Under the pieces are notes generated by a model. The model worked only from the letters and a program-made list of their open reading frames with translations, did no database searches and was not told where the DNA came from. The position numbers and the translations under genes were made by a program. A DNA stretch of 64,000 bases. It comes from a virus. Location of the stretch: the IMG/VR virus record IMGVR_UViG_3300032116_015770; one strand, 5' to 3'. Shown here piece after piece: positions 25,446 to 42,703 of this stretch. The stretch's first letter is position 1, and the number at the start of each line of letters is the position of its first letter.

Positions 25446-25474
25446 TTGATTTTCTGTTGCCTTGACGTTAAAAT
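25446..25474 (+). promoter_or_regulatory. Sigma70-type early promoter TTGATT-N17-TAAAAT
   Basis: Third copy of the TTGATT -35 with 17-nt spacing, intergenic. Confidence 0.7.
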
Positions 25475-25501: not shown

Positions 25502-25693
25502 ATGATAATTTGCTCCTGTAGAAATATACGTGAATCAGACTTTCCAGATAAAGATAAATTAATTTTACGTCTGTATGAGGATGACGCGCAATGTAGGGTT
25601 TGTTTAGAGAATATCGATAGGTACAAGAGTAAACCGAATACGTTTATGGGTGCTTGGGCTTACTATAGTTTAAACAAAGAGTTTAGTAAATAA
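25502..25693 (+). CDS. Bfd-like [2Fe-2S] ferredoxin
   Basis: MIICSCRNI...CRVC matches the Bfd CxC...CxxC ligand pattern. Confidence 0.65.
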   Translation: MIICSCRNIRESDFPDKDKLILRLYEDDAQCRVCLENIDRYKSKPNTFMGAWAYYSLNKEFSK

Positions 25694-25696
25694 ATA
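25689..25696 (+). promoter_or_regulatory. Late promoter AATAAATA for the tmRNA precursor
   Basis: Predicted +1 near 25702, at the apparent start of the acceptor piece. Confidence 0.55.
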
Positions 25697-25701
25697 TTTT
25701 T

Positions 25702-26056
25702 AATTGTTGTATGATGCAAACTGAAAAGGGTTCTGGACGCGGGTTCGACTCCCGCCTGGTCCACCAAAAGGAGATTGTATGCCAGTAGATATGTACTACT
25801 ATACTGAGAGTGAATGGAATCGTTTAGGGTGTGGACCTCTTCCACCTGAACGAGATATTCGTAATAAGGTAAAGTCTTCTTTTGAGGGGCCAGACATGGT
25901 TTCGACAGGGTCAAGAGTAGGGGAGTGGACAACACGTCAGGCGATCGACGTTAATGAAGCAAATAAGTAATCGCAAATGACGAGTACTACGCTCTAGCAG
26001 CTTAAATTGCTAGATGGGGTTTCGGTAGCTGTCCTTATTACCCAATCAGCTACCTT
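25702..26056 (+). ncRNA. ssrA: Circularly permuted two-piece tmRNA (acceptor piece ~25702-25766, intervening segment 25767-25886, coding piece 25887-~26056); tag ANDEYYALAA
   Basis: T-arm GCGGG-TTCGACT-CCCGC plus CTGGTCC-ACCA precedes GGGCCAG-ACATGGTTTCGAC; 7-bp acceptor stem with G3.U70; tag frame 25973-26005. Outer ends approximate. Confidence 0.93.
25779..25970 (+). CDS. ORF starting in the tmRNA intervening segment
   Basis: SD AGGAG 25769-25773 and ATG 25779; reads through the 5' end of the coding piece. Confidence 0.4.
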   Translation: MPVDMYYYTESEWNRLGCGPLPPERDIRNKVKSSFEGPDMVSTGSRVGEWTTRQAIDVNEANK

Positions 26057-26076
26057 AATGATTTTCAGTACGGTAG

Positions 26077-26084
26077 TATAAATA
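26077..26084 (+). promoter_or_regulatory. T4-type late promoter TATAAATA upstream of pqqA
   Basis: Perfect consensus, intergenic. Confidence 0.7.
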
Positions 26085-26160
26085 ATATTTTAGTAGATTC
26101 ACTTCATATGTTCAATAGATAATATGGACCGGCAATAGTGCCGCCATAAAGGAGAAAAAT

Positions 26161-26235
26161 ATGAAGTGGACTACACCTGCAGCTCAAGATATGCGTTTTG
26201 GTTTTGAAATTACCATGTATATCGCTAATCGATAA
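26161..26235 (+). CDS. pqqA: Pyrroloquinoline quinone precursor peptide PqqA (24 aa, not in ORF track)
   Basis: MKWTTPAAQDMRFGFEITMYIANR*, with W..P leader and E-x-x-x-Y core; SD AAAGGAG 26148-26154. Confidence 0.95.
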   Translation: MKWTTPAAQDMRFGFEITMYIANR

Positions 26236-26238
26236 ATA
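26231..26238 (+). promoter_or_regulatory. Late promoter GATAAATA overlapping the pqqA stop
   Basis: Upstream of the strongly SD-led ORF at 26297. Confidence 0.55.
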
Positions 26239-26296
26239 AATTGAGTTGGTAGATCTCTAAAACTACCATCACACAAACACACAAAAGGAGATGTAA

Positions 26297-26569
26297 ATGA
26301 GTAATATGTCACCATTCGAGATCCGTCTCGAACTTCTTAAGATGGCCAAGGAAATGCTTACTGAAGATTATTACAGTAAGCGAGATCAAGTTTCCAACGA
26401 CTGGCAAGTTAAAGTAGAAAACGCTCGCCACGCCGGTGCAACACCACCTGATCATCCAGGCTTTCCATCATACCCCACTGAAACAGATATTATTAATAAA
26501 GCGCAAGCTTTGAATGGTTTTGTTTCTCAACTTCCAGATGTAAAAGTTACTAAGAAATCTACCGCTTAG
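26297..26569 (+). CDS. Conserved phage hypothetical protein
   Basis: PFEIRLELLKMAK...YPT..DII.KA..LN.FVS; SD AAGGAG with AC-rich leader. Confidence 0.75.
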   Translation: MSNMSPFEIRLELLKMAKEMLTEDYYSKRDQVSNDWQVKVENARHAGATPPDHPGFPSYPTETDIINKAQALNGFVSQLPDVKVTKKSTA

Positions 26570-27147: not shown

Positions 27148-27461
27148 ATTTAATGGAAACACTTATAGTATGGAAAGAAAAAGCAGTAAAGTTTTTTGAG
27201 TCGTTTCCTAAAGCATCTGCTGATGTATTTGCCTGGATAAGTATTGTTATATTATGCTTAAGTAATATACCAAGTTATTATGCATTGATGACGGCTGTAA
27301 CGGATAAGACTCCTCCCCTGGATATGTCCTTAATTGTATGGGTCGGTCTATTGCTTTATTTCTTCCGTTCAGCTATACTTAAAGACATGATTATGGTAGC
27401 AACTATTGGATTAGGTTTTGCTATTCAACTCATCTTTTTAGGGCTCATTTATTTCATATGA
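27144..27461 (+). CDS. Small multi-pass membrane protein
   Basis: Three hydrophobic helices. Confidence 0.65.
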   Translation: MNLMETLIVWKEKAVKFFESFPKASADVFAWISIVILCLSNIPSYYALMTAVTDKTPPLDMSLIVWVGLLLYFFRSAILKDMIMVATIGLGFAIQLIFLGLIYFI

Positions 27462-27721
27462 CCGACGACATAACTGAACTAACTGATGCGTTAGTAATTA
27501 CCAAGCGCTTTAGATCACCTAATGAGTTTAGTATCTTCATTGATGAGCGAGTTAATAAACTAAAGATTGGTTACATGGATGCAGTTATTAATTACTGCCA
27601 GGAAATGGATATTGATGTTGAATCCATAGGTCCATTAATAAATCAAAAACTTCGTGAAAAGATACAAGTAGAGGCCGAGCAGGCAAATATGATTAAACCA
27701 AGAGGTCATCTGCCTATATGA
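27458..27721 (+). CDS. gp33: Late transcription coactivator gp33
   Basis: YMDAV..YC....ID.ESI..LI...L.EKI..EA...N; synteny with gp59 and gp32. Confidence 0.85.
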   Translation: MTDDITELTDALVITKRFRSPNEFSIFIDERVNKLKIGYMDAVINYCQEMDIDVESIGPLINQKLREKIQVEAEQANMIKPRGHLPI

Positions 27722-42304: not shown

Positions 42305-42703
42305 ATGGCCACCTTAAAAACACATAGAAGATACTCAGATATTAATCTGTTATTTTCGAGACATCCTACAACCGGGGATGTTACAAAGAAAACTGATGTC
42401 GAAGCTATCAAGGCTTCGGTGCGTAATATTATTCTGACTAAAAATTATGAAAGACCTTTTCATCCGGAAATAGGTTGCCAAGTACACAGCTTATTATTTG
42501 AAAATGTAACTCCGGTTACTATTCAAGTAATGCAAAGAACTATCGCTCAGGCTTTAGAAAAATTTGAGCCTAGAGTAACATTAGACAACGTTGTAATTGA
42601 TCCTGATATTGATAATAATGGAATTAGAGTAGATGTATATTTTACAATTAATAATACACAGGAACCTGTAGTCATAAGTACAACTCTAACAAGAATAAGA
42701 TAA
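42305..42703 (+). CDS. gp25: Baseplate wedge protein gp25
   Basis: YSDINL.F..HP.TGD, SVRNIILT...ERPF.PE.G, FEPRV. Confidence 0.92.
   Translation: MATLKTHRRYSDINLLFSRHPTTGDVTKKTDVEAIKASVRNIILTKNYERPFHPEIGCQVHSLLFENVTPVTIQVMQRTIAQALEKFEPRVTLDNVVIDPDIDNNGIRVDVYFTINNTQEPVVISTTLTRIR

Follow-up and report, generated by a model that had tools for sequence, protein, structure and literature searches.

A stand-alone pqqA gene in a T4-like phage genome and the candidate signals for its expression

The pqqA locus

This report concerns a stand-alone pqqA gene, coding for the peptide precursor of the cofactor pyrroloquinoline quinone (PQQ), in the IMG/VR virus record IMGVR_UViG_3300032116_015770. The window, that is, the whole stretch of 64,000 nucleotides (nt) that was analyzed, corresponds to bases 33057-97056 of this 165,076-bp record, which has direct terminal repeats and is estimated to be complete. 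PQQ is made from the Glu and Tyr of the PqqA peptide, one peptide being consumed per cofactor; PqqD and PqqE make the Glu-Tyr cross-link, and PqqB, PqqC, and a protease complete the molecule. The methanol and alcohol dehydrogenases that use PQQ as their cofactor depend on lanthanides or calcium and feed methylotrophs that are abundant in fresh and marine waters. The gene and the elements in its upstream region are as follows.

26055-26071, plus strand: operator-like box TTAATGATTTTCAGTAC, a degenerate 17-bp palindrome at position -106
26077-26084, plus strand: TATAAATA, a T4-type late-promoter motif, 76 nt 5' of the ATG
26098-26103, plus strand: weak -35-like TTCACT, read from the sequence
26118-26125, plus strand: candidate host-type -10 (GATAAT / TAATAT), 4-6 nt before the hairpin core
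26126-26145, plus strand: hairpin in the 5' untranslated region, CGGCA, loop AUAG, UGCCG with two outer G-C pairs; -8.1 kcal/mol, z = -1.7
26149-26154, plus strand: Shine-Dalgarno sequence AAGGAG (AGGAG at 26150-26154), ending 6 nt 5' of the ATG
26161-26235, plus strand: pqqA, 24 codons and TAA, matching TIGR02107 and PF08042

The 24-codon open reading frame (ORF) is a genuine and intact PqqA precursor gene, and its translation is exactly the peptide quoted when the locus was first singled out. That peptide scores 39.1 bits (E 4.8e-10) against the NCBIfam model TIGR02107 (curated cut-off 20), the hidden Markov model (HMM) proposed at that time as a check, and 38.9 bits against Pfam PF08042 (cut-off 21.1), in both cases about twice the curated cut-off. 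It keeps W3, P6, and the cross-linking pair E16 and Y20 (E-x3-Y) within the core FGFEITMY; the leader residues W3 and P6 are the same in bacterial copies, and binding of the phage peptide by PqqD is predicted. The TIGR02107 profile matched a single place in the 165-kb phage genome, the pqqA locus, and gave zero matches in 14 control genomes; the ORF is therefore not a chance match. A strong ribosome-binding site and a copy of TATAAATA had also been claimed for the upstream region; both are present at the positions listed above, and sites of the AGGAG/AAGGA type occupy the position equivalent to the former in the phage relatives.

HMM searches of the complete 165-kb genome found no match for pqqB, pqqC, pqqD, or pqqE and none for the PQQ alcohol/methanol dehydrogenase family, and a tblastn search of it with the Acinetobacter PqqB-E proteins was negative. 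The absence of pqqBCDE, originally stated for the window, therefore extends to the complete genome, and the function of the peptide requires the enzymes of the host. The missing genes are no argument against membership in the PqqA family, since orphan copies are normal in Methylophilaceae, where 3-12 pqqA copies per genome accompany a single pqqBCDEFG (PMC4109929). Such numbers fit with precursor dosage being of importance in these hosts. Like the window copy, the dispersed copies of Methylophilaceae stand alone, away from pqqBCDE, with a 17-bp palindrome upstream; those are chromosomal genes, whereas in the phage the box is degenerate, a late motif has been added, and a terminator is missing.

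The window contains T4-like genes for the baseplate wedge, hub-lysozyme, and tail-tube cap, as well as a ribonucleotide reductase gene. Shortly 3' of pqqA lie genes for a gp33-like co-activator, the gp59 helicase loader, and the gp32 single-strand binding protein, all on one strand. Together with the terminal repeats and the two regulators listed below, they identify the sequence as a virus genome and not host contamination.

27458-27721, plus strand: gp33-like late-transcription co-activator (phrog_254, 69 bits)
G000:C1:124401-125009: gp55-like late sigma factor (phrog_234, 203 bits)

Recurrence of pqqA in phages

The 24-amino acid (aa) peptide was compared by tblastn with 50,697 GenBank phage records, of which 12 matched. 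Ten belong to Melnitz (four isolates), Venkman, MEP301, MEP401, MEP402, the LD28 phage P19250A, and one spring-water podovirus; the other two are mislabelled Acinetobacter chromosome contigs with pqqABCDE. The record CAKLQF020000010.1 ('Acinetobacter phage MD-2021a', locus L008) contains ppk and a full pqqABCDE operon and looks like a bacterial chromosome. Every cultured Methylophilales phage that the search returned has pqqA, and every phage match is a complete ORF of 23-24 codons with an ATG and a stop, in most cases preceded by an SD-like AGGA/AAGGA (SD, Shine-Dalgarno). As in the window, the cultured-phage genes are orphans, and the copies scored reach 34-41 bits with TIGR02107; their peptides differ from the window peptide, with 64-75% identity. 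None of the cultured phages matched has the gene annotated as pqqA, and the gene callers missed it in every cultured methylophage examined, so the profile match is of some value for annotation. In Melnitz the gene adjoins tRNA-Leu on the plus strand (L002:3001-3075; MZ577097.1 76134-76208) and is overlapped by an antisense 'hypothetical protein', MelnitzEXVC044M_152, which is probably spurious. An antisense ORF is annotated over pqqA in the spring podovirus ctXG6705 as well, and no feature is annotated over the gene in Venkman, MEP301, MEP401/402, and P19250A.

When IMG/VR was searched with a degenerate DNA pattern that encodes the core MRFGFE(V/I)TMY, at least 120 contigs were retrieved. Among the matches listed, 120 of 120 copies are intact ORFs of 23-25 codons, whose start, leader, tail, and stop lie outside the pattern, and the available flanks of these contigs contain no pqqB-E. 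That these 120 contigs share the peptide core is partly a product of the pattern design, a point that weighs against reading it as a sign of selection. The Pseudomonas/Acinetobacter-type core gave 0 viral contigs in IMG/VR and the alphaproteobacterial-type core gave one (L275:2712-2804, core VGMEVTSYE), with pqqB-E absent from the 9.8 kb of that contig examined. As judged by these patterns, viral pqqA is common but almost confined to the betaproteobacterial peptide type.

Copies of pqqA occur across unrelated myo-, sipho-, and podoviruses. The nearest copies overall to that of the window are viral (L050/L011 with 91% and L074 with 87% nucleotide identity), and many phage PqqA peptides have exactly the sequence of the most frequent bacterial ones. 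By their gp6 proteins, the nearest cultured relatives of the phage are the pelagiphage HTVC008M (40%), Mosig (39%), and the OM43 phage Melnitz (36%). No pqqA was found by tblastn in HTVC008M and Mosig, SAR11 phages as close to this phage as Melnitz, whereas Melnitz, which infects a PQQ-dependent methylotroph (OM43), has the gene. The presence of pqqA in phages tracks the host.

Candidate hosts

The same core pattern was applied to the bacterial genome collection. Among the matches listed most are Methylophilaceae, and the other genera include Methylophaga, Caballeronia/Paraburkholderia, Limnobacter, and Rhodoferax. The window peptide is of the ...DMRFGFEITMYIANR type, with ...ITMYIANR in place of the ...VTMYVMNK of Methylophilaceae, to whose type it is 67% identical. 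The nearest bacterial matches among those listed are Rhodoferax and Burkholderiales metagenome-assembled genomes, with 92% amino-acid and 77-81% nucleotide identity. PqqE was above the cut-off in five of five genomes of the nearest peptide types, and a PQQ alcohol dehydrogenase was found in three of the five. The original prediction of a PQQ-producing host is thus borne out for candidate host types, to which the evidence on host pqqBCDE capacity is confined; this scope counts against the proposed use of the phage peptide. To judge from the peptide, the phage probably infects a PQQ-making bacterium of the Burkholderiales, broadly defined. For a firmer assignment 24 residues are too small a basis, and the GC content of the phage genome (36.5%) is of no help.

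Other clues to the host were set aside. A two-piece beta_tmRNA was above the cut-off in none of the five candidate host-type genomes, and Melnitz itself has a two-piece transfer-messenger RNA (tmRNA) while its host has none (PMC9004378). The nearest cultured phages, at only 36-40% gp6 identity, infect SAR11, OM43, or cyanobacteria. A 146-aa ORF directly 5' of the gp55 gene (G000:C1:124019-124459; L274:1020-1460) matches a PHROG labelled 'methylamine utilization' with 53 bits; the label was dropped as a host clue because Pfam gives it no support, and it is probably unreliable.

The late-promoter motif

The element TATAAATA has the sequence of a T4-type late promoter, from which transcription would be expected to start about 6 nt downstream, late in infection. 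The octamer is depleted overall, the window having 4 copies where shuffles give 13.7; its raw presence is therefore not above chance and only its placement is informative. The placement is strand-specific. Intergenic sense-strand DNA, which makes up 5.8% of the genome, contains 14 copies of ATAAATA, compared with 1 antisense copy and 3.8 copies in shuffles, and the full octamer occurs there genome-wide 7 times versus 1.3 expected, with 0 reverse complements. The other intergenic ATAAATA copies adjoining gene starts lie 5-51 nt before the start codon, and the genes behind them include the gp48-like baseplate gene, the ORF at 42305, and other long ORFs. As the genome also encodes gp55 and gp33 homologues, the phage evidently uses T4-type late promoters, and an intergenic sense-strand octamer TATAAATA, taken alone, would sooner be functional than not.

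The same element and the same pair of factors operate in T4 together with the sliding clamp (Geiduschek and Kassavetis 2010, as cited in PMC9004378); in comparison, the copy at pqqA stands at a greater distance upstream of its gene than any other and lacks conservation among relatives, and its use is predicted. Both of these properties count against late expression from this site. With 76 nt to the ATG it is the most distant of all copies, and the motif is absent from the syntenic loci L074 and L068, the latter of which shares the downstream gene too. It is also absent from the large-phage loci L011/L050, L035, and L058, and among 115 distinct viral upstream regions a comparable position is found in only one other, the T4-like L043 (-87). 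The proposal that pqqA stands under a phage late promoter was thus right as to the motif, which is real genome-wide, and as to the factors encoded, but this particular copy is the one farthest from its gene and is unconserved in syntenic relatives. On balance, the motif seems somewhat likely to drive pqqA late in infection, and it is unlikely to be the main or only control of the gene. The stop codon of pqqA is itself overlapped by a second ATAAATA (26232-26238, plus strand), which precedes the ORF at 26297 by 58 nt and is likewise not conserved in relatives.

Host-type upstream elements

Bacterial pqqA genes are preceded by a 17-bp palindrome with the consensus CTCATGAAAATCATGAG or its variant TAATGA...TCATTA. 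The expectation for an operator of this class was ATGAWWWTCAT and the bases adjoining it, placed some 80-140 nt ahead of pqqA. The core occurs in perfect form at 25% of bacterial pqqA loci versus 0.13% of control windows, an approximately 200-fold enrichment. At least seven of eight core matches were found ahead of 22% of viral copies (2.7% of controls, 8-fold), and the box is enriched ahead of bacterial copies as well (36% versus 1.6% of controls). Phage copies have a degenerate form, AATGAWWWTCA(C/G)TA, which is nearly invariant in 10 of the 11 loci of an alignment (A1) of the window and ten related phage loci, and a box-like element is present in most of the cultured methylophages.

In Ca. 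Methylopumilus universalis (1.27 Mb), the only two perfect 15-bp TCATGAWWWTCATGA palindromes each lie about 100 nt before an orphan pqqA, and a one-mismatch palindrome is found about 90 nt ahead of pqqB (loci L261, L262, and L266; G004:C1 at 416025, 1186146, and 576378). This arrangement looks like a dedicated PQQ-synthesis regulon. The palindrome accompanies pqqA loci of the Rhodoferax type too.

The box of the window matches the Methylotenera-type box in 14 of 17 positions and has seven of the eight core positions in addition to the WWW. Two facts weigh against its being an operator: its right half-site departs from the palindrome, and matches of 14/17 quality number 12 per strand in the 165 kb, compared with 9.8 in shuffles. 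Alone it is not significant genome-wide, and no more is therefore claimed for it than that it belongs to the enriched class; what would make it persuasive is its position, which has a probability of about 1% by chance, and the conservation of that class.

In most relatives the box is followed at 23 nt (sometimes 45 nt) by a -10-like hexamer and then directly by a hairpin of locus-specific sequence. In the window the spacing between the box and the candidate -10, GATAAT/TAATAT, is 46-49 nt, with TATAAATA located in the spacer. The -35/-10 pair scores 8/12, below the 9/12 threshold of our consensus scan, which did not call it. A first hairpin criterion was too loose, as 67% of controls passed, and we used fold z-scores and the pairing of a -10 with a hairpin instead. 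A -10-like hexamer 3-9 nt before a leader hairpin is present at 55% of viral loci versus 16% of controls, and viral pqqA leaders as a group form more stable folds than random DNA does (mean z -1.19 versus -0.31). The corresponding values for the window leader are modest, z being about -1.5 to -1.7, which speaks somewhat against a function of this particular hairpin. An Rfam search of the pqqA leader returned no family, only chance-level matches. A terminator-like hairpin follows the stop codon at 41% of viral and 42% of bacterial loci versus 3% of controls. In the region 26233-26296, after the pqqA gene of the window, no terminator was found, and it folds no better than shuffles. Taken together, the comparisons suggest that the more general regulatory feature of viral pqqA would be a retained host operator.

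Adjacent tmRNA and downstream genes

The genes and signals on either side of the pqqA locus are the following.

25446-25474, plus strand: sigma-70-like promoter TTGATT-17-TAAAAT, a consensus match only, 5' of the tmRNA unit
25657-26096, plus strand: two-piece (circularly permuted) tmRNA gene, identified by Rfam and ARAGORN, with the tag ANDEYYALAA
26297-26569, plus strand: 90-aa ORF of no known family, without a PHROG or Pfam match

The Rfam family beta_tmRNA (RF01850) spans 25657-26067 with 137 bits, tmRNA_permuted (RF04321) scores 140 bits, and the ARAGORN call covers 25674-26096. The 3' end of the tmRNA is accordingly some 65-95 nt ahead of the pqqA ATG, and TATAAATA lies at or just past it, within the ARAGORN span and 10 nt beyond the Rfam match. 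Our scan found no terminator-like site between tmRNA and pqqA, and read-through into pqqA is therefore possible; the sigma-70-like promoter would be a possible source of such transcripts. The order tmRNA-pqqA is also found in the syntenic loci L074 and L068. A start homologous to that of the downstream 90-aa ORF (MSN..PFEIR) lies 3' of pqqA in L068, and the ORF thus travels with the tmRNA-pqqA block; as no terminator follows pqqA, this ORF probably shares its transcript.

In L011, L050, and L035, which have arrays of 25-28 tRNA genes, pqqA is situated at the margin of the array, 44-45 nt from tRNA-Leu (L050 comes from a 166-kb contig, L011 and L035 from contigs of 11 and 19 kb). In large phages pqqA tends toward stable-RNA neighbourhoods, whether tRNA arrays or tmRNA.

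Proposed role of the gene and alternative explanations

We consider it highly probable that the stand-alone pqqA of this uncultured aquatic phage is a genuine, selected auxiliary metabolic gene that supplies the PQQ precursor to host enzymes during infection and has layered expression. For its expression, the timing, the use of the peptide by host enzymes, and the benefit to the phage, we infer the following scheme. By transcribing its own pqqA, the phage would maintain the precursor supply when host transcription fails. The host PqqD/PqqE, PqqB, PqqC, and protease would then convert the phage peptide to PQQ, and PQQ would sustain periplasmic dehydrogenases of the XoxF or methanol dehydrogenase (MDH) type, so that respiration could be kept running after host shut-off and could yield energy for making new phage. 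Transcripts of the gene most likely have more than one origin: early read-through from the tmRNA unit, a host-type promoter with the degenerate box of the host PQQ regulon, and the gp55/gp33-dependent late promoter TATAAATA between the box and the -10. Of these, the late promoter is probably particular to this phage and L043, where it would act atop early read-through or host-type initiation.

A more specific form of this scheme is tentative. It combines a retained host operator, used early by host RNA polymerase and a regulator of PQQ demand, with a gained gp55/gp33 late promoter, and regards pqqA as a cassette mobile among phages. If true, the cassette (operator, -10, 5' hairpin, Shine-Dalgarno sequence, ORF, and often a terminator) would move between unrelated phages of PQQ-dependent Burkholderiales, and phage production would be limited, as far as PQQ synthesis is concerned, by the supply of precursor. 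A phage gene for the precursor only could then reveal the step at which cofactor synthesis first breaks down during infection, while a retained host operator suggests that some auxiliary genes remain wired into host regulons. In any case pqqA would mark phages whose hosts make PQQ.

Three simpler schemes of control differ in which of the elements they leave idle. If the gene were expressed from the gp55/gp33-dependent TATAAATA at 26077 and from nothing else, the box and the -10-like hexamer would be inert relics. The intergenic excess of the octamer, the two late factors, and the motif of the T4-like L043 would all fit, and so would two further observations: six of the eight other plus-strand copies of TATAAATA are intergenic and begin 13-59 nt before a gene start, several of these genes being long ORFs, and neither the window nor L043 has the -10 that usually stands 23 nt from the box. 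Such exclusive late control is nevertheless rather improbable in view of the exceptional distance to the ATG, the lack of the motif in L074, L068, L011/L050, L058, and L035, and the position of pqqA in the one-strand gp33-gp59-gp32 neighbourhood behind a sigma-70-like promoter and a terminator-free tmRNA. The reverse arrangement, with host RNA polymerase at a host-type promoter, a regulator on the 17-bp palindrome, and TATAAATA incidental, we regard as possible, if doubtful. It would account for the enrichment of the box before viral and bacterial pqqA, its near invariance in A1, and its presence in cultured methylophages and before pqqA and pqqB in genomes of the Ca. Methylopumilus and Rhodoferax types, as well as for the paired hexamer and hairpin and the frequent terminators. 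At this locus, however, the box is degenerate and has 12 equally good sites per strand, the spacing to the -10 differs from that of most relatives, the -35/-10 pair is weak, and the terminator is missing. That pqqA is a passenger of stable RNA, transcribed with the tmRNA precursor and released by tmRNA processing, the hairpin protecting the new 5' end, appears quite unlikely. The terminator-free gap, the gene order kept in L074 and L068, and the tRNA genes beside pqqA in Melnitz, L011/L050, and L035 agree with it; yet at most viral pqqA loci no stable-RNA gene is nearby and the box, -10, and hairpin are kept all the same, and the adjacency could merely reflect a region tolerant of insertions.

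Two other explanations dispute the role of the gene and not its control. A decoy peptide that ties up PqqD/PqqE and disturbs host PQQ synthesis, or a function outside PQQ, is very improbable: no specific point was found in its favour, the peptide keeps the cross-linked Glu and Tyr and the leader W and P, and many phage peptides do not differ from the most frequent bacterial ones. Conservation of a substrate-competent core speaks against a decoy, which would not require one. No more credible is an unexpressed, neutral hitch-hiker. The very small size of the gene and its variable region would suit this idea, but all 120 listed IMG/VR copies and all cultured-phage copies are intact, most with an SD-like site, and the gene recurs in unrelated myo-, sipho-, and podoviruses. 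Supply of a precursor to the enzymes of the host, from more than one source of transcription, agrees best with these observations.

Relation to known systems

The phage pqqA is an auxiliary metabolic gene of an already known kind. PqqA together with a viral methanol dehydrogenase has been reported in Lake Baikal phages with predicted Methylophilaceae hosts (Coutinho et al. 2020, Microbiome 8:163, PMC7678222). One of them, VP_266, resembles the present phage in encoding a PqqA precursor, interpreted as the product of an auxiliary gene for a methylotroph-type host, and in lacking the full pqq pathway, and differs in encoding a methanol dehydrogenase (PMC7678222), which this phage does not; in its passages on PqqA, that paper is silent about promoters, an upstream box, and adjacency to tmRNA. 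With viral PqqA published in 2020 (PMC7678222) and common in IMG/VR, the gene itself is not new, and the novelty that had been placed in its regulatory integration is weaker than stated. The functional idea put forward at first is reasonable and agrees with the interpretation already in print.

Among cultured phages, Melnitz is a T4-like relative that shares the two-piece tmRNA, but its pqqA lies beside tRNA-Leu instead of tmRNA and lacks TATAAATA. The tmRNA has been described in the Melnitz paper, where PQQ is mentioned solely as a medium additive, at 1 nM in the ASM1 recipe (PMC9004378).

A broader parallel is the psbA gene of cyanophages, which replaces a rapidly consumed or turned-over host component and lets energy metabolism continue after shut-off. 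The psbA product is a complete functional protein, whereas that of pqqA is a consumable substrate requiring at least four host enzymes.

Minor features of the tmRNA genes

The segment between the two pieces of the permuted tmRNA contains a 63-aa ORF at 25779-25970, for which Pfam gave no match. In L068 (4042-4975), about 450 nt with a reverse-strand ORF separate the tag-coding part of the tmRNA from its 3' terminal helix; this segment could be an insertion or a mobile element.

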